The position numbers and the translations under genes were made by a program. A stretch of DNA of 64,000 nucleotides from a virus: IMG/VR virus record IMGVR_UViG_3300005563_000004, positions 3,332 to 67,331 of that record, one strand, 5' to 3'. Positions 2,430-21,041 of the stretch are shown here, piece after piece. The number at the start of each line of letters is the position of its first letter. Position 1 is the stretch's first letter. Below the pieces are notes generated by a model, which saw only the letters and a list, made by a program, of their open reading frames with translations, had not been told where the DNA came from and did not search any database.

Positions 2430-3343
2430 TGCAACTTGCTCCTCAGATGTTCGATGCACTTTTCCAGCTTGTCCTGCGCCATCTCGTCCCACGTGGAGAC
2501 GTTGGCCGCGGCCAGCCATTTGTCCGTGGTGCCCTCCTCGAGCTTCACCACCTCGAGCAGCCGGTTCAGCTCCTCGATCTGCTCCGGCGTAGCGCAGGCG
2601 ACAGGCGATGACGCTTCCTCGACCACGTCACGGCCGTACAGCTTGGTGAACTCGTCGTAGGTCCAGTCGAAGGTGGCAGCGTGCGGAAACGCCGCGATGC
2701 GCGACTTGCGCACCCGGCCGAAGCGCCGATCGCCCAGCTTCACCACCTGAATTGCCAGGTCCAGCTCATATTCGAGCCGCGGCCAGCAATCGAACGTGCT
2801 ACCGATCTGCGCCCGCTCGCCCTGGCTGTCTTTCCCCCACTCGGGGATCTCGCCGCAGATCAGGATGACGTTCAGGTTCATGCGCGTCAGCCACGAGACC
2901 AGCTGGCGCATGTAGTTGACGGCCGGCTTCTTGTCGGCGCCGAACTCGTTCCGTTTGCCTTCGTCGTGCAGGCGCTCAGCCTCGCGCGCAATCTCGTTGG
3001 CGAACAGCTTGGTCATAGAGTCGATAACCAGTGTGCGCCGATCGTGCTCCTGCGTGGCCAGTGCTTGTACCTGCTCCATCACCACTTGGAATGAAGCAGC
3101 GCCATCGTCAGGACCGAGATACATGCCGTTGGCAGCCTTCAGCCTCTCCCGGTATTCGGGCTGCGTGGCGCCCCCCTCCACGTCGATGAAGTAGACATCG
3201 GGAAAATCTATGGCGAATGAGGTTTTGCCGACGCCAGACGCGCCATAGGCTAGGATCTTCGGTTTGCGGGCTTTGATCAGCTCCGGCGCAGTGGCCAGCA
3301 GCTTCGGCCTTCGCTTGGGTTTGGTTTGCAATCCATCAGGCAT
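2426..3343 (-). CDS. Sak4-like AAA (AAA_24) recombinase/ATPase
   Basis: Walker A YGASGVGKT, FIDVEGG, Walker B TLVIDSMT; paired with an SSB gene. Confidence 0.85.
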   Translation of the reverse strand: MPDGLQTKPKRRPKLLATAPELIKARKPKILAYGASGVGKTSFAIDFPDVYFIDVEGGATQPEYRERLKAANGMYLGPDDGAASFQVVMEQVQALATQEHDRRTLVIDSMTKLFANEIAREAERLHDEGKRNEFGADKKPAVNYMRQLVSWLTRMNLNVILICGEIPEWGKDSQGERAQIGSTFDCWPRLEYELDLAIQVVKLGDRRFGRVRKSRIAAFPHAATFDWTYDEFTKLYGRDVVEEASSPVACATPEQIEELNRLLEVVKLEEGTTDKWLAAANVSTWDEMAQDKLEKCIEHLRSKLQ

Positions 3344-3614
3344 TCTTGCGTTCCTCCAGGTGCACATGCGCCCGCCCATCCCGCGTGTAGATCGCCGTAG
3401 CGATCAGACCGGGCAGTTCGCGGCGGCGCTGACCGATGATGTCGAGGGCCGCGAAGCTGGCGTGCACCAATGTGTTTTCGTTCAGCGTGCCTCTGGCACG
3501 CAGCGTCGCGCGCAGCAGATCATCAACGATCGCCTCGCCGCTCTCAGGGAGAGGGGCGCCAGGCAGCGCCCGCATGTGGATCTCCTGCAGGTACTTTAGC
3601 TGCGCTGGCGTCAT
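3336..3614 (-). CDS. hypothetical protein
   Basis: GGAGG SD; overlaps the next gene start. Confidence 0.55.
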   Translation of the reverse strand: MTPAQLKYLQEIHMRALPGAPLPESGEAIVDDLLRATLRARGTLNENTLVHASFAALDIIGQRRRELPGLIATAIYTRDGRAHVHLEERKNA

Positions 3615-12953: not shown

Positions 12954-13469
12954 GTGAAGCAGTCTCGCTCCAAGCTGACGTTGTTTCCTGATACGCCGCG
13001 TGGCTGCTCGTCGTGCAAGCGGCTGTTGCACCCATCGTGGTTTGTGCGCTGCCAGGGCAACAAGGACGGATTACACTCGCAGTGCATCGAGTGCCGCGCG
13101 GTCGCGAGGAGGGCGGACTATGCGAACCGTCGCGAGGAGTTCGCGGCTAAGCATCGTATCAAGACCTATGGCCTGGACCCAGCGACATTCGCGAGGCTGG
13201 TCGAGAGACAGCAGAACCATTGCGCGATCTGCGATGAAGACTTTGATTTCTGCATTCGCCATATCGATCATGACCACGAGACTGGCCAGGTAAGGGGTCT
13301 GCTCTGCCCTCGATGCAATACGACTATTGGCCGCGCCAATGATGATCCGGCGCTGTTGCGGGCGATGGCGGCTTACATTGAGCGGCATCGTGCACGGCAG
13401 GCGATTGAGCAACGGATCGGACGGAACACAGAAGGCGAACAACTAACGCCGGATGTGAGCGAGCCATGA
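12954..13469 (+). CDS. endonuclease VII family protein
   Basis: YGL.....L...Q...CAIC...HIDHDHETGQVRGLLCPRCNTTIG...DD. Confidence 0.88.
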   Translation: MKQSRSKLTLFPDTPRGCSSCKRLLHPSWFVRCQGNKDGLHSQCIECRAVARRADYANRREEFAAKHRIKTYGLDPATFARLVERQQNHCAICDEDFDFCIRHIDHDHETGQVRGLLCPRCNTTIGRANDDPALLRAMAAYIERHRARQAIEQRIGRNTEGEQLTPDVSEP

Positions 13470-13753: not shown

Positions 13754-14090
13754 ATGGATCGAGATGCTTGAGCGTGCCGAGATGCAGGCCCGGCCGGAGC
13801 TGCGGTCGCAGGCGTTCGAGGCGGTCAAGCGCTACTATGGCTTGGTTGATGATGGGTCTGCGGCGCATGAGCCAGCGTCGATGTCCGATTCGCCGCATTC
13901 TGAGACCGTGGAGCAGACACCGACCGATGTGGAAGTGCAGCGCCACGTTGACCGTGTGTGCGATCACCTGATTGCCGGTCGCACCACGCCGGCACAGCGA
14001 TCCGGGCTGAGCACGGCGGTAGAGAGGGCGGGGCGTGTGCCTAGCGGTTCTGACGCGGCTGTGGGGCGAATTGCGAGGCTGGTGCGGTGA
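13746..14090 (+). CDS. hypothetical protein
   Basis: GGAGG SD; operon packing. Confidence 0.45.
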   Translation: MSRWIEMLERAEMQARPELRSQAFEAVKRYYGLVDDGSAAHEPASMSDSPHSETVEQTPTDVEVQRHVDRVCDHLIAGRTTPAQRSGLSTAVERAGRVPSGSDAAVGRIARLVR

Positions 14091-14302
14091 CGCGGCATTG
14101 CCAGCGCGGCCACGAACTGTCCGCCGATAACGTCGCGCTATGGAATAGCGGTGCTGGCCATCCCATTGCGTGCTGTCGCGAGTGCAATCGCGAGCGCGCG
14201 AAGCGGTGGCGCAAGGCGAATGCGCGTTGGCTGACGCGGCGTAAGCAGACGCGGCGTAAGCAGACGGACTATGGGCATTCGGGGGCGATGTTGGCGCGAT
14301 GA
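14087..14302 (+). CDS. HNH-associated Zn-finger protein
   Basis: HCQRGHEL..DN...CRECNRER. Confidence 0.6.
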   Translation: MTRHCQRGHELSADNVALWNSGAGHPIACCRECNRERAKRWRKANARWLTRRKQTRRKQTDYGHSGAMLAR

Positions 14303-14841
14303 GATCCGCGCCGCAGCCATACAGCCACGGCTTCAATGCGTGGTGGGCGTTTAACATGCGACCAGAAAATGACGGTCAGGCGGACGACACTGGCTCGCCG
14401 AACGATCCACCGACTCGGTGGGGCTTTACGTTTCCCACTTGGCAGGATGCGCGGCGGTGGTGCGGGTATGCTGATGCGAGCTTTGCTGCGTTCGTAGCGT
14501 CGTCGCAGGACGACATGCAGATGCTGGCCTGGTCGTATTACTGGGAGCGGCTGGGGATGTTGGACGTGCGGCTCGGTGCGGACATCAGCACGGTGGACTG
14601 GTGCTGGACGAGTGGCGGAGCGGCGTTGGAGATACAGAAGATCCTCGATGTGCAACCGCTCGATGGGATCATTGGCGACATCACCATAGCGGCTATCAAT
14701 GCGGACGAGGCGTACATCGATCGGGTGTATGGGGCGCGGGTGGCTTACTACAACGACCTTGGCTTTCAGGATGTGTTCCCTGGGCTTTACACGCGGGCTG
14801 CGGCGTGTCGCGAGCGATCGATGCAGGCGGCGATGCCGTGA
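14299..14841 (+). CDS. divergent GH108-like lysozyme (endolysin candidate)
   Basis: E.DG...D.PTRWGFT; YYW; DW.WTSG; IQKILDVQ.LDGIIG.ITIAAIN; R..YY...F.G...R. Confidence 0.7.
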   Translation: MRSAPQPYSHGFNAWWAFNMRPENDGQADDTGSPNDPPTRWGFTFPTWQDARRWCGYADASFAAFVASSQDDMQMLAWSYYWERLGMLDVRLGADISTVDWCWTSGGAALEIQKILDVQPLDGIIGDITIAAINADEAYIDRVYGARVAYYNDLGFQDVFPGLYTRAAACRERSMQAAMP

Positions 14842-15275
14842 GCCTTGTCACTCGCCCTGACCGGATTGTGTGGACGACGCCGGTAAACAAGCAGGCTGCG
14901 CTACAGACTTCTGGTGTGAAGGATGTGCCTGTAACGCCGATGCAGGAGCGTCGCAATCTGCAGCGGGCGTTTAAGGCTTTGAATGAAGCGTATATCCGCG
15001 CTGACGATCCGAGAGAGAAGCGGCGTATCGGTAAGCAGATTGAGTTTGTGCAGAGGGAAATCAGCAAGCGCGGTCGCTGGACGCCTCAAGGCAAGCACGA
15101 GTTTGCGAATTGGATTGTGAATGTTGCCAAGGACAAGCTGCCTCGTCCCATATTCGACGAGATCTTGCGTGAGGCTGGCGTGAGGTACCACGACGCGCAG
15201 CGGGGGCGCGCTGCGGTCATGGAGGAGAAGCGGCACCGCTCGATGATCGAGCGTGTGAAAGCGACGGAGCTATGA
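14838..15275 (+). CDS. hypothetical protein
   Basis: GTGA overlap with the lysozyme stop. Confidence 0.5.
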   Translation: MSLVTRPDRIVWTTPVNKQAALQTSGVKDVPVTPMQERRNLQRAFKALNEAYIRADDPREKRRIGKQIEFVQREISKRGRWTPQGKHEFANWIVNVAKDKLPRPIFDEILREAGVRYHDAQRGRAAVMEEKRHRSMIERVKATEL

Positions 15276-15592
15276 CCGAGCACACTGCCCGATGCCAGGA
15301 GTGCGGGGCGGACGTTCCGCTGAGTGAGGTGTGGCACCATAGGGGTGTGTGCGGTGCTGCTCGGGAGCAAGTTATGTCGGGTGTGGTGGAGCATGTGGCT
15401 CGCGCGATTGCGATGGAGGAAGGAATTGCACCGGCAAAGTGGCCTGTGTTTCTGGAGGCAGCGAAGACGGCAATAGCGGCGCTGCGTGATCCGACTGTGG
15501 AGATGATTGGCGCGGGTGCGACTGCCGGTGCGGTGTCGAACGATGCTGCGGTGGCGGTCTGGCAGGCGATGATTGATTGTGCTGCGTCGTGA
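15272..15592 (+). CDS. hypothetical protein
   Basis: CQECG; VEHVARAI...A.AAI.ALR.PT.EM motif common in alphaproteobacterial phages. Confidence 0.55.
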   Translation: MTEHTARCQECGADVPLSEVWHHRGVCGAAREQVMSGVVEHVARAIAMEEGIAPAKWPVFLEAAKTAIAALRDPTVEMIGAGATAGAVSNDAAVAVWQAMIDCAAS

Positions 15593-15823: not shown

Positions 15824-16735
15824 ATGTTGATAGCTCGTCGTAGCTTATTGGCGGGGGCTGCGGCTGCGTTGCCTGGGATGGCGTATGCGGACTGTGGCGA
15901 GCAGGAGCGTCGCAAGCTACTGAAGTTTGGCTTGATCCCGCAGGCGTATGCGTGCGGCAACAACCCGATCGCTGGTGCGTTCTTCTCGGACGACTTCAAC
16001 ACGCTGAGCCTTTACAACACGCGCAACACAGCGGCGGGCGGGACTTGGCAGCCGGCGGGGACTTTCAGCACGTTCGTTGACGGGCAGGACTTCAGCGGCG
16101 TGTGGGTGGTCAATCCGTTCAACCCGGCAACGCCGTATAACAATGTGTATACGGTATCGAACTCCATTCTCTCGATGCGGATCGACAATTCGCCCAACCC
16201 GACGAACACGGGCGGGGATGCGTTGATTGGCGGGCAGCTGCACACGTTCAACACGTTCCAGCATGCGGTACAGGGGTATTGGGAGGTTCGTGCTGCGGTT
16301 CCGGTGTTGCCGGGGAGTAATTTTGTTTTCTGGCTGAATGATCAGACCGGGCGTCAGCAGATCGGGATATTCGATTGTGTGACGAACGCTGACAGCAGTC
16401 ACTTTGCGGGTTTCGATGTTTGGGACCCTGCGACTGACACTGAGACGTTTCAGTGGTTCACGTTCCAGATGGCGCAGCCGGTGAATGTGACCGGCTTTCA
16501 TCAGTATGGCGTGAAGGTCACGAACACACAGGTTTCGCTGCTCATTGATCGTGTGGTGCAGGTGTCGACGGCGCTGCCGGCTGGCTACGTCAATCCGATG
16601 TTTATCTTCTTGGATTGGTTCAGTGGCGGGACTGCGGGCGGGACGGGATTTATCTCGGCGCCTGTGGCATCGCCGTCGTTTGGGCAGGTTGATTACGTGG
16701 CGTATTGGCTGCCTGGCACCGGCCCGGTGCCATGA
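15824..16735 (+). CDS. Tat-signal GH16/ConA-like beta-jelly-roll protein, probably non-catalytic
   Basis: RRSLL signal; FSDDFN; GYWEVRA; FWL; GFHQYGV; VDYV. QQIGIFD occupies the ExDxxE position. Confidence 0.7.
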   Translation: MLIARRSLLAGAAAALPGMAYADCGEQERRKLLKFGLIPQAYACGNNPIAGAFFSDDFNTLSLYNTRNTAAGGTWQPAGTFSTFVDGQDFSGVWVVNPFNPATPYNNVYTVSNSILSMRIDNSPNPTNTGGDALIGGQLHTFNTFQHAVQGYWEVRAAVPVLPGSNFVFWLNDQTGRQQIGIFDCVTNADSSHFAGFDVWDPATDTETFQWFTFQMAQPVNVTGFHQYGVKVTNTQVSLLIDRVVQVSTALPAGYVNPMFIFLDWFSGGTAGGTGFISAPVASPSFGQVDYVAYWLPGTGPVP

Positions 16736-18291
16736 TTGGGCGCCGTGCGTTGCTGGGTGGTGGTGCGGCGATCATTGCTGGGCCGGCGGTGGCGGAACCG
16801 TGCGGGGAGGAGGAGCGGCGTCGGCTGCTCAGGTTCGGGGATTTATTCATACCAGAGGCGTATGCGTGTGGTTCGGGTGGCAATGGCCCAGCGGCGAGCA
16901 GTGCGTTTCTGACGGCTGACTTCACGTCAGCGCAGAACTACACGGGCACGGCGACGCAGCAGGTTGTGTCGCAGCGGATGTATGGCGTTTACATGGGGTA
17001 TGGCGCCGACGCGACGAACCGTGGCGGGACGAACACGAACAGCTTTGCGGCTTACTCCAATTCGACATTTACCACGGCGATGGCGACGGCCAATCCTGGT
17101 CTGCATGTTGTGACTGGGAACACGGTGGCTGGGGCGACGCCGTTTTGGACGAATGATGGATCGGGCAATCCTACTGTGGTGAACCCGACTGCCATGGCGA
17201 ACTTGGTGAACAATTTTTTCAAAGTCGATCCGCTGGGCATATCTGGCATTTTGTTCGGCTGTAATTTCAATGCGTTTCCGCAGTTCTCGAGCACGGCTGT
17301 TTATGCGCAGGCTCAAGGGAACATGGCTGCGTGGTGGAACAATGGCGGTGCTGGGCGAGTGATGCCGAACGGCAAGTCTGTGCCGTTCATTGGGTGCATT
17401 GGGCACAATGAGCCGGACAGCTTCGGGCCGACGACCACGGCGAGCTATTACAGCGCGATGACCTCGGCGGTGAAGGCGGTCAGCTCGAGCTATGTTGTGT
17501 CGGGGCCGGTGTGGTCGTTTTATCAGGGTGCGAACACCAAGAGCTTTTTGACGGCGTGCAGTCCGAAGCCTGATGGCGTGACGTGGGATGCGTTCAATGA
17601 CGGGAATGGCAGCAGTACGCCGCTGGGTCCCCCGATGTACACCAGTCCGACGTATGCGCAGCAGTGGATGTCGCCGGGGATCAGCAATCTTTTCGCGACT
17701 GATATGCCGGCTGGATACACGCCGACATCGGTCATGGTTGCGGGCAATGTGGGGTTTAATGGCAACCGGCCGGACATGTGGTCGATCGACGCGGTGACGT
17801 GGCTGGCGGTCAATCAGTTCAACAATTTGAGTGCTTGCAAGTGCCCGATGTGGCTGGCGATTTGGGATGATGGTGGGCAGGCGTTCAATGGCGTGATTGC
17901 TGACAACAATGGCAATGGCACTTCGATCCAGACGACGCCGATTGCGTATTACATGGGGGCTGGCGTTCGGAATGTGTTTGGGTCGCGGTGGAGTGTTCCG
18001 ACCAATCCGAATGGGTTGAAGGTGATTGCGACGACGCCTGCGTCGGGGCGGTTTGGCATGACGATCGTCAATCCTGGGCTGGGCGCCAAGAGCGGGACGG
18101 TGGCGTTGAGCCATGTTCCGCTTGGGGCGTCGCTGAATGCGCAGGGGAATGGGACGGTAAACATGTGGCAGATGACCTCCTCGGTGCAGACGCCTGGTGT
18201 GGATGGGACGCGCACGACGGTCAATGTGACGGGTGGGGTTACGACGAGCATCAGCTTTCCTGATCCGTCGGTTACGATCTTGTACACGTAG
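16732..18291 (+). CDS. Tat-signal clan GH-A-like glycoside hydrolase (GH39/51-like barrel plus beta domain)
   Basis: RRALL signal; GHNEPD acid/base motif; Y....AVKAV....VSGP; C-terminal PxSVTIL. Confidence 0.6.
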   Translation: MIGRRALLGGGAAIIAGPAVAEPCGEEERRRLLRFGDLFIPEAYACGSGGNGPAASSAFLTADFTSAQNYTGTATQQVVSQRMYGVYMGYGADATNRGGTNTNSFAAYSNSTFTTAMATANPGLHVVTGNTVAGATPFWTNDGSGNPTVVNPTAMANLVNNFFKVDPLGISGILFGCNFNAFPQFSSTAVYAQAQGNMAAWWNNGGAGRVMPNGKSVPFIGCIGHNEPDSFGPTTTASYYSAMTSAVKAVSSSYVVSGPVWSFYQGANTKSFLTACSPKPDGVTWDAFNDGNGSSTPLGPPMYTSPTYAQQWMSPGISNLFATDMPAGYTPTSVMVAGNVGFNGNRPDMWSIDAVTWLAVNQFNNLSACKCPMWLAIWDDGGQAFNGVIADNNGNGTSIQTTPIAYYMGAGVRNVFGSRWSVPTNPNGLKVIATTPASGRFGMTIVNPGLGAKSGTVALSHVPLGASLNAQGNGTVNMWQMTSSVQTPGVDGTRTTVNVTGGVTTSISFPDPSVTILYT

Positions 18292-18551: not shown

Positions 18552-18791
18552 ATGCCTGCGCGCGCGATGCTGTTACTTGCGGTTCTTCTGTCGGGATGCA
18601 CACCTTATGCACAGAGGGTTTCTAGCTTCTGCCGTCAGTTGGGAGCCACGCCTGGATCGCAGCACTACTGGGATTGCGTTCATCAGCAGATGGCGATTGA
18701 CCAGCGGGACCGGGCGATGTGGGCGGGCACGACTGCGGTGGGGGCGCAGTTAATGCAGGGGCCGCCCAATGTTTACGTATATGGCCGGTAG
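18552..18791 (+). CDS. small lipoprotein
   Basis: Lipobox LLSGC; C..LG..PGS..Y.DC. Confidence 0.7.
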   Translation: MPARAMLLLAVLLSGCTPYAQRVSSFCRQLGATPGSQHYWDCVHQQMAIDQRDRAMWAGTTAVGAQLMQGPPNVYVYGR

Positions 18792-18912
18792 ACCGATGTG
18801 CGACAAAATTTCCATGGCGCTGGCGTCGCAGGCTTTGTCTGCGCTGTCGATCAACGATTTCAAGGGCGCGTGGCGCCTGGCGGACGAGCTGAAGCGTCGG
18901 TGGGCGCGTGAG

Positions 18913-19212
18913 CTAGTGGAACCAGATCCGAAGCAGCTCGACCACAAGGGTGACGACGAAGCCGATGGCGGCGACGCCCCCAAGAAGCTGCGCTTTCAGG
19001 CTGTTTAGCTTCTCCACCTTGGCGTCTAATTTTTCCAACTTCGCGTTGGTTTCCGTTTGCTCCTTCACCATCCGCGTGACATGCGTATCGTTGACGGCCA
19101 CCTGCAGCGCCATGGTGTCGACTTTGTCGTCTACTTTCTCCACGTGCTCATGTAGGCGAGCCACGTCGTCGCGCAGGCTGACGGCCATCTGGTGTTGCAT
19201 AGAGCCAGACAT
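18913..19212 (-). CDS. coiled-coil protein with C-terminal TM helix (XhlA/holin-accessory-like)
   Basis: AAGGAG SD; heptad pattern followed by LLGGVAAIGFVVTLVV. Confidence 0.6.
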   Translation of the reverse strand: MSGSMQHQMAVSLRDDVARLHEHVEKVDDKVDTMALQVAVNDTHVTRMVKEQTETNAKLEKLDAKVEKLNSLKAQLLGGVAAIGFVVTLVVELLRIWFH

Positions 19213-19295
19213 GGCCAACTCTCCTTAAGTCATCTTGGTGCCCCGCTCGGTTGTATCAGTTGCGGATGGTATCGGGGTAGGGATAAGACCGGAGG

Positions 19296-21041
19296 GTGAT
19301 CGACCTCCAATTCCTGGTTGATGCCATTCGGGACGGCGAACTGGACGAAGACTTAGGGCGCTCGCTGCACGAGAGCCTGACCCAGTGCCGGTTGGACGAT
19401 GAGCGGGCGATCTGCGAGGGATCGCTTTACGAGTATCTGGTGCGGGCCTGGCCGGCGTTTGACCCGGCGCCGTTTGTTGGTGGCCGGCATGTGCAGGCGC
19501 TGTGCGAGCATTTGGAGGCGGTGAGCAGGGGCGAGATCCGCCGGCTGATTGCCAATGTGCCGCCAAGACATTGCAAGACCAGTATTGTTGCGATCGCCTG
19601 GGCGACGTGGACATGGGCGCTGGCGCCGGACGCGGAGTATCCGCTGATGGGGCCTGGCGTGCGGTTTTTGTGCGCGAGCTACGGGGCGAAGAAAGCGGAG
19701 GAGGATGCGGTCACCGCGCGGCGGTTGATTGCGTCGCCCTGGTATCAGCGGCTGTGGGGCGATCGGTTGGTGATCGCCAAGGACCGCGACAATTCCGGGC
19801 AGTATGACACGACGGCCGGCGGCTCGCGGATCAGCACTGGTATTCCTGAGAGCTTGGGGAAGGGCGGGATCATCAAGATCCTGGACGATCCGCACAAGAC
19901 GACTGAGGTGGAGAGTCAGGCGGTCGTTGAGAGCCAGGTGCGGGCTTACAACGAGGTGTGGCGGACGCGGTCGAACGATCCGACGAAGGGCGCCGAGGTT
20001 CTGATCATGCAGCGCCAGGCGGAGGGTGATCTGTCGGGATATCTGCTGGACAACGACGGGGCGGAGATCGTGCATCTTTGCTTGCCGGCGCTGTTCGAGG
20101 AGGACCGGCGGTGTGTGACGGCGACGGGTGGCTGGTGGATCAATGCGTGGGGCCAGCGGCTTGCGCGCACGCGATATGAGTTTGCGGACTGGCGCGAGGA
20201 GGATGGCGAGCCGCTGTGGCCGGAGCGGTTTTCGGTCGAGTGGTATGAGACGCAGGCGAAGTCGGTCGGCGAGTTTGGATTTGCCGGGCAGTATCAGCAG
20301 CGGCCTGCGCCGCGCGGCGGCGGCATTGTGCGGCGGGAATGGTGGCAGCTGTGGCCGCCGACTGGCGAGGAGGACAAGTGGCGCCGGCTGGTGGTCGATG
20401 AGGAGACCGGGCGGCAGTACTACATCGCCACTTGGCCGTCATGGGAGTTAACCATCGGTTATATAGATACGGCGTTCACCGAGAAGGAGGAGAACGCTTA
20501 CTGCGCGATGACGACTTGGGGCGTGTTTGCGGACAGTGGCGGGCGGCCGAAGGTAGCGATGACGGGTGCGTGGCGTGACCGGCCGACGCTGAAGGCGTTG
20601 GCGACGCGGATCTTGGACACGGCGCGGCGGCGGAAGCTGGACATTGTGGTGCTGGAGAACAAGGCGGGCGCCAACTGGGTGCAGTTGGAGCTGCAGCGGC
20701 TGATGAATCCGGGGGAATTTCGGATCGATCTGGACAATCAGACCGGGTTTGCGAAGGGATCGCGCGACAAGGTGTCGCGGCTGCATTCGGTGTCGGCGTT
20801 GTTCGAGGGTGGCGTGATCCATGCGCCGGACACGACCTGGTCGGAGATGGTGATCGCCGAGGTGTCGCAGTTTCCCAAGGGGCGGTGGAAGGATCTGACG
20901 GACACAGTGAGTGGCGCGCTCGGGTATTTGCGGCAGTTCGGGCTGATCAAGTTGGCGGATGAGCACGAGCGCGACGAATTTGAGTTGCGCAAGTTCCGCG
21001 GCCGGCGGATTTCGGTAGCAGAGCGGTACGGCGTCGGCTAG
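19296..21041 (+). CDS. terL: terminase large subunit
   Basis: RRLIANVPPRHCKTS, ILDDPH, VLIMQR, FAGQYQQRP, IDTAFTEK, VLENKA.G, DKVSR, FP.G...DLTD. Confidence 0.95.
   Translation: MIDLQFLVDAIRDGELDEDLGRSLHESLTQCRLDDERAICEGSLYEYLVRAWPAFDPAPFVGGRHVQALCEHLEAVSRGEIRRLIANVPPRHCKTSIVAIAWATWTWALAPDAEYPLMGPGVRFLCASYGAKKAEEDAVTARRLIASPWYQRLWGDRLVIAKDRDNSGQYDTTAGGSRISTGIPESLGKGGIIKILDDPHKTTEVESQAVVESQVRAYNEVWRTRSNDPTKGAEVLIMQRQAEGDLSGYLLDNDGAEIVHLCLPALFEEDRRCVTATGGWWINAWGQRLARTRYEFADWREEDGEPLWPERFSVEWYETQAKSVGEFGFAGQYQQRPAPRGGGIVRREWWQLWPPTGEEDKWRRLVVDEETGRQYYIATWPSWELTIGYIDTAFTEKEENAYCAMTTWGVFADSGGRPKVAMTGAWRDRPTLKALATRILDTARRRKLDIVVLENKAGANWVQLELQRLMNPGEFRIDLDNQTGFAKGSRDKVSRLHSVSALFEGGVIHAPDTTWSEMVIAEVSQFPKGRWKDLTDTVSGALGYLRQFGLIKLADEHERDEFELRKFRGRRISVAERYGVG

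Follow-up and report, generated by a model that had tools for sequence, protein, structure and literature searches.

A stretch of 64,000 nucleotides (hereafter the window: bases 3332-67331 of the 67,331-bp IMG/VR virus record IMGVR_UViG_3300005563_000004) encodes two adjacent proteins, here called A and B, which begin with the same kind of leader and continue into unrelated glycanase-like domains. The leader is a discrete, genuine and previously unnamed N-terminal module of about 46 residues, composed of an arginine-arginine (RR) export signal ending in AxA and a following block bracketed by two cysteines. The module always stands at the N-terminus, is under purifying selection and has been shuffled among cargo domains; it represents a new variant of signal-peptide architecture shuffled among phage glycanases, real but rare and so far purely metagenomic. 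As to its function, we give about one chance in two to the reading that the leader is a cleavable, probably twin-arginine translocation (Tat)-type signal followed by a Cys-bracketed helix-loop, which is kept on the mature N-terminus as an envelope handle. The record has direct terminal repeats and is rated 100% complete; primase/helicase, portal, head protein, large terminase and virion proteins identified in the window indicate a tailed phage.

The leader shared by genes A and B

The two genes and the parts of their leaders, as read from the open reading frames (ORFs) and their translations, are:

15824..16735, + strand: gene A (leader plus GH16-like domain, 303 aa); ATG at 15824, stop codon at 16733-16735
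15824..15889, + strand: signal half of A, M1-A22; RR at 5-6, 16 uncharged Gly/Ala-rich residues, P-G-M-AYA
15890..15958, + strand: Cys-bracketed block of A, D23-G45; spacer D23, C24, GEQERRKLLKFGLIPQAYA (19 residues), C44, G45
16732..18291, + strand: gene B (leader plus GH79/GH30-like domain, 519 aa); ATG at 16732, stop codon at 18289-18291
16732..16794, + strand: signal half of B, M1-A21; RR at 4-5, 16 uncharged residues, G-P-AVA
16795..16872, + strand: Cys-bracketed block of B, E22-G47; spacer E22-P23, C24, GEEERRRLLRFGDLFIPEAYA (21 residues), C46, G47

The stop codon of A and the start codon of B overlap as ATGA. A sequence-only reading of the window had drawn attention to two leader peptides here, and translation from the two start codons gives exactly these peptides in their places. 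The public gene call for A (P0003, 285 aa) begins at Met19; we prefer the longer start at 15824, because the upstream RR signal is retained in the relatives P0004, P0006 and P0007. A clear Shine-Dalgarno sequence is absent before both candidate starts of A (15824 and Met19), and the idea that Met19 serves as an alternative start giving two isoforms was rejected, the internal Met not being conserved among relatives.

Comparison of A with B (P0001 and P0002 in our comparisons) by BLASTP gave a single significant segment, residues 2-64 of A against 1-70 of B, with 36/70 positions identical (E 5e-16); all other segments had E >= 2.6, and the likeness is confined to the first 64-70 residues. Only the N-termini match, and the domains downstream of the leaders are of different folds, as the sequence-only reading had proposed. 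When A and B were searched by tblastn against the whole 64-kb window, each found only the leader of its partner (E 4e-14 and 8e-10), and no further copy is present in the 67,331-bp virus record. In both proteins the block follows the pattern Cys, 18-21 residues (ERR[KR]LL[KR]FG..P.AxA), Cys-Gly, and the B block runs directly into a Gly-rich linker, SGGNGPAASS. The signal half of A has a mean Kyte-Doolittle hydropathy of 1.34 and zero charged residues past the RR.

The earlier impression that this leader is not a named domain is borne out by the family searches: neither A nor B as a whole has a match in Pfam (E <= 1) or PHROG (E <= 0.1), and eight leaders compared with Pfam at E <= 10 found only Hexapep (0.033) and TAT_signal (0.23), in one member each. 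A leader profile run against PDB sequences gave a single chance match (E 2.1), i.e., no solved structure. No literature description of such a leader emerged from titles and abstracts, in a narrow search that left subscription journals and supplements uncovered, and a narrow full-text search for a tandem signal peptide with twin-arginine found none.

Distribution, constraint and exchange among cargo

We examined 22 leaders: two from the window, 11 from cluster representatives, three from metagenome loci and six from members of the P0007 cluster. The 20 further bearers outside the window are all metagenomic, and all carry the module at the extreme N-terminus. An exhaustive hidden Markov model search with a six-leader profile against 1.84 billion cluster representatives returned 10 proteins at E <= 1e-3, comprising eight true bearers (their first residues matched) and two unrelated repeat proteins. 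A word-indexed search of longer proteins gave 11 matches, all of them bearers, and added P0029, P0030 and P0031; family searches with the whole of A and B contributed the bearers P0004, P0006, P0007 and P0012; a metagenome scan located three bearer loci (L003, L004 and L005); and the P0007 cluster yielded six more leader N-termini. Searched for in this way in metagenome proteins, the motif recurs fused to varied cargo. The strict pattern AxA-(0-2 residues)-C-(18-21 residues, ending in AxA)-C-G is present in 18/22 leaders, and the remaining four (P0032, P0033, P0034 and P0037) have V-L-A at site 1, the first of the two AxA sites. We take P0025 and P0031 to share one 22,275-bp contig, which would make this a second phage with two bearers.

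No relative of A or B was found by tblastn among 50,697 cultured-phage records, and in IMG/VR beyond the record itself no leader was detected by peptide patterns or by a degenerate DNA pattern. The genomes of 185,579 GTDB species gave 139 pattern matches, none of which encodes the leader. Domains of the B family that lack this leader do occur in alphaproteobacterial metagenome-assembled genomes (MAGs), one of them labelled Acetobacteraceae, and the host of the phage is probably an Acetobacteraceae-like alphaproteobacterium.

Selection on the two halves of the leader was estimated from Nei-Gojobori counts for the five leaders with DNA (10 pairs), the dN/dS ratio (nonsynonymous to synonymous divergence) being computable for each half in 8/10 pairs. 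Across pairs it ranged from 0.04 to 0.25 in the block and from 0.12 to 0.71 in the signal half. Between A and B the proportion of synonymous differences (pS) in the block was 0.79, near saturation, and that of nonsynonymous differences (pN) 0.11, compared with a pS of 0.54 and a pN of 0.36 in the signal half. The block is therefore the most constrained part of the leader, and the constraint acts on the protein and not on DNA or RNA. The A/B leader pair is an old duplication or exchange. That the motif might occur nowhere else and reflect a recent local duplication, an outcome which the sequence-only reading had named as fatal to its proposal, is contradicted by the 20 other bearers and by the saturated synonymous sites; a recent local duplication is rejected on the block values (pS 0.79 against pN 0.11).

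The cargo domains of the two proteins are:

15980..16732, + strand: cargo of A, GH16-like beta-jelly-roll (family profile against PDB; motif columns)
16879..18288, + strand: cargo of B, (beta/alpha)8 barrel plus beta-sandwich (AF2 model, Foldseek); NEPD at 17407-17418

The GH16-like assignment of A, made earlier from its sequence, holds: the family profile matched 45 GH16 chains in the PDB at E <= 0.1, the best of them the glucanase 3atg (E 2.1e-11). The best NCBIfam match was EglC (E 2e-17, far below the cut-off of that model), and the relatives P0008 and P0010 pass the PF00722 threshold, while P0001 itself is without a Pfam match. The AF2 model of A was left out of the fold search because it was poor (mean pLDDT 46.3). 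The catalytic motif of GH16 is E-x-D-x-x-E, and the corresponding columns read EIDIVE in P0008, EIDIIE in P0010 and EIDIME in the PDB alignment. This motif is absent in A, where the columns read QIGIFD (16358-16375, residues 179-184), as they do in P0004, and QIAVFG in P0005; with QIGIFD in place of ExDxxE, A may bind glycan instead of cutting it. Judging from these columns, the sub-lineage of A, P0004 and P0005 may represent a non-catalytic, lectin-like GH16 fold.

For B, the AF2 model is better (mean pLDDT 78.1, pTM 0.82), and its nearest Foldseek neighbours are GH79 beta-glucuronidase and heparanase, followed by GH30, GH51 and GH39 (E 2e-16 to 4e-12, TM 0.45-0.61), in agreement with the clan GH-A-like barrel predicted before. 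In clan GH-A the acid/base Glu follows strand 4 (N-E-P) and the nucleophile Glu follows strand 7. E227 in the NEPD of B is nearly invariant in the alignment. After the modelled strand 7 (333-338; 17731-17754, residues 334-341) B reads AG-N and has no Glu, a placement made by alignment only and not by superposition. A Glu stands at that place in P0023, P0015 and P0029, and most aligned members of the B family are without one, so that, to judge from the alignment, the canonical nucleophile of clan GH-A may be unused in this family. The description of the cargo as carbohydrate-binding needs to be modified accordingly: the folds are those of enzymes and not merely of binding domains, yet A has lost the GH16 catalytic motif.

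The leader precedes GH16-like cargo in P0001, P0004, P0006 and P0007, and it precedes three lineages of B-type cargo (P0002/P0012/L003; P0023/P0031/L005; P0029/P0030) which are mutually 30-32% identical by BLASTP. In the metagenomic protein P0024 (727 aa) one leader is followed by a B-like and then by a GH16-like domain, a fusion which suggests that A and B share a substrate, and in P0025 the leader is joined to fn3 and a GH26-like domain (match to the beta-1,3-xylanase 2ddx, E 2.7e-5). The identities of blocks and cargo disagree: P0023 and P0029 have blocks that are 100% identical and cargo that is 37% identical; P0001 and P0004 have cargo that is 85% identical and blocks that are 41% identical; and P0030, of lineage 3, and L003, of lineage 1, have blocks that are 92% identical. 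Because of this disagreement we conclude that the module has been shuffled among cargo. The proposal of a modular tag is thus supported in part: the module is discrete and stands before interchangeable, glycan-active cargo, namely GH16-like, three GH79/30-like lineages, a fusion of both kinds, and fn3 plus GH26-like.

B-type or GH16-like domains also stand behind fn3-type N-terminal regions (P0014, P0015, P0017, P0018, P0020, P0009 and locus L009). From their N-termini, most of these proteins are without an evident signal peptide, P0014 has a lipoprotein-type signal, and one is found in an alphaproteobacterial MAG. They look like virion-borne depolymerases, and the lineage would then use one enzyme domain both attached to the tail and exported. 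The tail genes of the phage in the window contain no A or B domains.

Export and the role of the Cys-bracketed block

All 18 leaders that fit the strict pattern have RR-x-hydrophobic-hydrophobic and an uncharged, Gly/Ala-rich run of 13-17 residues (18/18 for each), and the four V-L-A leaders (P0032, P0033, P0034 and P0037) likewise carry RRRVFL. The signal half has a mean hydropathy of 0.7-1.8, 0-2 charged residues and a Pro or Gly at -4 to -6 from site 1; in most bearers it is about 21-27 residues long. When the leader profile was run against 401 genomes from the family to which the Acetobacteraceae MAG belongs, it matched 13 places in 12 genomes. Ten of the 13 places were inspected, and all ten are ordinary host periplasmic binding proteins with signals like MIxRRxLLxGxAAxLAAPAxAQ and no block; the other three match only profile positions 1-37, which correspond to the signal half. 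Since near-identical signals are found on periplasmic proteins of this family, the signal half is a host-type export signal. The Tat consensus is RRxFLK, and the signal half fits the rules for Tat signals on that consensus. The Tat-like signal named by the sequence-only reading conforms to the motif rules (RR, hydrophobic h-region, AxA), but the thresholds of the curated models PF10518 and TIGR01409 are not reached. On these sequence features we put the export route at roughly two in three for Tat and one in three for Sec.

The block (23-26 residues) reads (E/D)(P)-C-G-E-E-E-R-R-K-L-L-R-F-G-(x2)-hydrophobic-x-P-x-A-x-A-C-G. With a mean hydropathy of 0.0-0.6 and 2-4 charged residues it is unable to span a membrane. 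Both Cys are invariant and the RR is kept in 16/18 blocks; the divergent type of P0004 and P0026 has R-W-R-K-I-L and retains both Cys and P-[ED]-A-H-A-C-G. The residue before the first Cys, after AxA, is D, P or A. The spacing of EEE and RRK would favour an exposed helix, and the AF2 models of A and B place a helix at about 26-34 (pLDDT below 50). A predicted complex of the A block with the B block (score 0.03, mark 0.32) is evidence neither way. Of the roles suggested by the sequence-only reading, a disulfide loop, a two-step processing signal and a docking peptide are conjectures which these computations do not tell apart. Within each leader the motif RR-x-LL ... P-x-AxA-C occurs twice, in the signal and then in the block. 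The single-signal B relatives P0016, P0019 and P0021 have an RR signal that ends in [DER]-A-L-[SA]-C-T-C and is followed by the same GPAASS linker, and MAFFT aligns the c-region of these signals (..TDALS-C-T-C) with ..PEAYA-C-G-linker of the block. On these alignments the block may plausibly have arisen when the ancestral signal was duplicated in tandem and this copy lost its hydrophobic core.

These observations can be combined into the following model. The signal half, which would be of twin-arginine type and resembles the periplasmic signals of an Acetobacteraceae-like host, would direct export and be cut at the first AxA, and the block would be retained at the mature N-terminus, where a helix that is first acidic and then basic (EEERRK LL[KR]F) would lead through a turn at Gly into a P-x-AxA segment. 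In the periplasm the two invariant Cys would probably be oxidised and close a disulfide loop, a Gly/Ser/Asn-rich linker would tether the block to the enzyme domain, and the block might thereby serve as a handle for positioning or retaining the glycanase within the infected cell's envelope. Most likely the block began as a tandem signal copy, which would have lost its hydrophobic core and gained a strongly selected role. Four elements of this model are what we infer from the sequences: that export is by Tat, that the signal is cut at site 1, that a disulfide forms, and that the block works as a handle. By analogy with known enzymes, A and B are probably periplasmic or released, and may serve late in infection to trim, or to bind, exopolysaccharide or other envelope glycans of the host.

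Several results weigh against this model. PF10518 matched only one of eight leaders, below threshold (E 0.23), and TIGR01409 none of the eight double-leader proteins, the single-signal P0016 alone matching it under the cut-off (E 0.081); neighbours with Tat signals in the ESM Atlas score just 0.78, which is at the level of a lead; and the signals are short for Tat substrates, which leaves Sec export in play. With a leader pLDDT of 20-48, the helix and the closure of the loop are without structural confidence. Alignment of signal with block scores z 0.9-3.35 against shuffled sequences (7 to 189 of 1000 shuffles reach the score), and the two parts are not established as a statistically solid internal repeat. 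Finally, the block keeps the exact pattern of a signal-peptidase site, and a second cleavage would account for this no less well than a structural loop.

This last point leads to two-step processing, which we regard as unlikely but which has some substance: the block would be a pro-peptide, with a second cut at AxA/C-G by signal peptidase I or another periplasmic protease, so that the mature enzyme starts with Cys-Gly as in the single-signal relatives and the block delays activity or guides folding or export. At site 2, Ala occupies -3 and -1 in every aligned leader, -2 varies (Y, W, Q, H, N, E), Pro is usual at -5, and -4 is usually E/Q/D and also S/G; Ala at -3/-1 with a free -2 and Pro at -5 is the classic peptidase-site pattern, and here it is under selection. 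The MAFFT alignment of the block end with the signal c-region of P0016, P0019 and P0021 agrees with such a cut, and ERR[KR]LL[KR]F is closer to RRxFLK than is the first signal. However, signal peptidase I normally cuts at the end of an h-region that is embedded in the membrane, and the block lacks hydrophobic character; a discarded block would leave the invariant first Cys and the dN/dS of 0.04-0.25 in need of some other reason; and both Cys are kept in the C-T-C relatives, suggesting that they act jointly in the mature protein. Acylation of the second Cys, which would tether the glycanase to the membrane, was among the earlier proposals and appears very improbable. A Cys followed by a Gly/Ser/Asn-rich linker does resemble a lipoprotein tether, and P0014, a relative within the B family, carries a plausible lipobox of canonical form (LSSC), so tethering occurs in the family. 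A lipobox is [LVI][ASTVI][GAS]C closing a hydrophobic h-region, and what precedes Cys 2 is A-[YWQHNE]-A-C, with Ala at -3, Y/W/Q/H/N/E at -2 and usually E/Q/D at -4; the preceding 12-15 residues have a hydropathy of 0.0-0.6 and 2-4 charges, so that a hydrophobic h-region is absent before this Cys, which lies about 20 residues past the membrane segment. The lipobox comparison thus speaks against Cys lipidation.

A timing function has been considered in two forms. The signal might be a releasable anchor like that of signal-anchor-release (SAR) proteins, or the second RR might hold the folded enzyme at the translocon, with the Cys pair as a thiol switch, so that the glycanases are freed or active only upon membrane depolarisation at lysis. 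The genes do lie between endolysin-like and terminase genes, a position kept in relatives, the h-region is weakly hydrophobic and Gly/Ala-rich, and SAR endolysins are controlled via an N-terminal domain and disulfide isomerisation (PMC6116005). All 22 leaders have an AxA/VxA site with Pro/Gly at -4 to -6 after the h-region, though, which points to plain cleavage; the cargo enzymes are not of a muralytic type, family scans showed no holin near the genes, and the different cargo domains have no conserved Cys in common, which together make lysis-timed release very doubtful. A related idea, likewise a long shot, takes the block as a 'headless' Tat signal (TatC-binding RR-K-L-L-K and AxA-C, strongly selected but without a core) serving as an ordered second checkpoint until the holin collapses the potential. 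If this were true, the glycanases would be held at the translocon or membrane or as a disulfide-tethered pro-form, a Tat-based counterpart of SAR-endolysin control which times the breakdown of exopolysaccharide or envelope glycans to lysis. Hardly credible at all is the view that a duplicated signal has left the block behind as a relic without function, or that the likeness of A and B stems from recent duplication or chance. The motif repeat within each leader is what one would expect of a relic, but the low dN/dS of the block with synonymous sites near saturation, its conservation in 22 sequences and four cargo architectures, and the BLASTP score of A against B (E 5e-16) speak against it. We return to the retained helix-loop as the preferred reading; as the evidence consists of 22 metagenomic sequences with no cultured host, and function is inferred, what we claim at present is a documented new N-terminal module and not a mechanism.

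Gene neighbourhood and comparison with known systems

The genes around the A/B pair, together with the terminase gene that follows, are:

14299..14841, + strand: endolysin-like gene, about 1 kb upstream of A (PF05838 GH108, E 2e-4, bit score 22.3, just over the cut-off of 21.2; PHROG 315 endolysin, 1.9e-6)
15272..15592, + strand: small Cys-rich protein upstream of A (46% identical to its L003 homologue, E 7e-22)
18552..18791, + strand: 79-aa ORF downstream of B with a lipoprotein-type signal (LLSGC) in its translation; no family match
19296..21041, + strand: terminase large subunit (PHROG 38, E 1.6e-65), the A/B pair lying just before the packaging genes

The small Cys-rich protein has an N-terminal stretch resembling C-x2-C...H-x3-C and a conserved helical C-terminal half, and it has no family match in Pfam or PHROG. 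Its gene stands just upstream of the leader genes in the window and in L003 (3365-3715), L004 (3996-4367) and L005 (453-839). It might be a dedicated chaperone, but this synteny may only reflect that the phages are related. In L003 it is preceded by a weakly SLT-like gene (2901-3377; PF01464, E 0.0016, below the cut-off), and by eye an evidently similar ORF occupies this position in L004 and L005. The SLT-like gene is unrelated to the GH108-like gene of the window; the position beside a wall-hydrolase gene is thus kept while the type of hydrolase differs (GH108-like in the window, SLT-like in L003). It looks as if one endolysin type had been exchanged for another while the position was conserved (window 14299-14841 versus L003). 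Family scans recognised no holin near A and B.

Two endonuclease VII/HNH-type genes (12954-13469 and 14087-14302; PF02945, E 1.5e-20, and PHROG HNH, 5e-7) lie just upstream of the endolysin-like gene. On the other side, a 100-aa coiled-coil ORF with a C-terminal hydrophobic tail (18913-19218, - strand) has a weak PHROG match to 'hemolysin' (E 6e-4) and otherwise generic coiled-coil matches in Pfam, and is a candidate lysis-associated membrane protein. It runs on the strand opposite to all its neighbours and overlaps the + strand ORFs 18769-19008 and 18950-19228, so the real frame is ambiguous.

As a rule, the enzymes with which phages cut the surface sugars of their hosts belong to the virion. 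As far as the sequences indicate, the uncultured lineage described here would instead send soluble glycanases to the periplasm behind a shared leader that is swapped among enzyme genes. The second half of this leader is short, strongly selected and unnamed, and imitates a Tat signal without being one. Should it turn out to retain the enzymes, to serve as their pro-peptide or to time their action, it would be a small tag, transferable between proteins, by which exported enzymes are controlled, and the biology of Tat export or signal peptidase would gain a new feature.

The comparison with other exported or phage-borne glycanases brings out both likeness and difference. WceF of Pantoea stewartii is Tat-exported, has a tailspike-like fold and shortens stewartan; its presumed task is the trimming of host exopolysaccharide, either periplasmically or extracellularly (PMC7949094). 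It resembles A and B in being a glycan-cutting enzyme of phage-like ancestry with a Tat signal, but its signal, of 28 residues, is single and is not followed by a Cys-bracketed block, its fold is a beta-helix, and its gene is bacterial. The Sinorhizobium phages PhiM9 and PhiM12 carry ExsH-like GH16 glycanases thought to cleave host exopolysaccharide; these are encoded among baseplate and neck genes and are virion-associated, the PhiM12 homologue being abundant in the proteome (PMC4621102). Cargo A is GH16-related, as are the rhizobial succinoglycan glycanases ExoK, ExsH and EglC, the last being its best NCBIfam match. A and B differ from the PhiM9/PhiM12 enzymes, which are not exported, in carrying export signals and in lying beside an endolysin-like gene, and A lacks ExDxxE. 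The SAR endolysins (P1 Lyz and phage 21 R) are likewise late proteins of phages; their N-terminal export domain is weakly hydrophobic, and Cys close to it control activity (PMC6116005). Their SAR domain is uncleaved and their cargo is a muramidase, whereas in all 22 leaders described here an AxA/VxA cleavage site is present, and the cargo is GH16-/GH79-like and not a muramidase.

With the Tat signals modelled by PF10518 and TIGR01409 the leader shares the RR with two hydrophobic residues, the Gly/Ala-rich h-region of 13-17 residues and the AxA end; it differs in the second, non-hydrophobic RR...AxA-C segment after the signal and in scoring below the thresholds of these curated models. We know of no described Tat signal with such a second segment. 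Leader extensions on diverse cargo are known from the extended signal peptide region (ESPR) of autotransporters, the YSIRK signals and the bipartite thylakoid transit peptides, which all, like the leader of A and B, add an extra conserved motif to a standard signal on unrelated passengers. In those systems the motif lies within or before the signal and is removed, whereas the block described here follows the predicted cleavage site, is bracketed by two Cys and mimics the RR...AxA layout of a signal while lacking its hydrophobic core.

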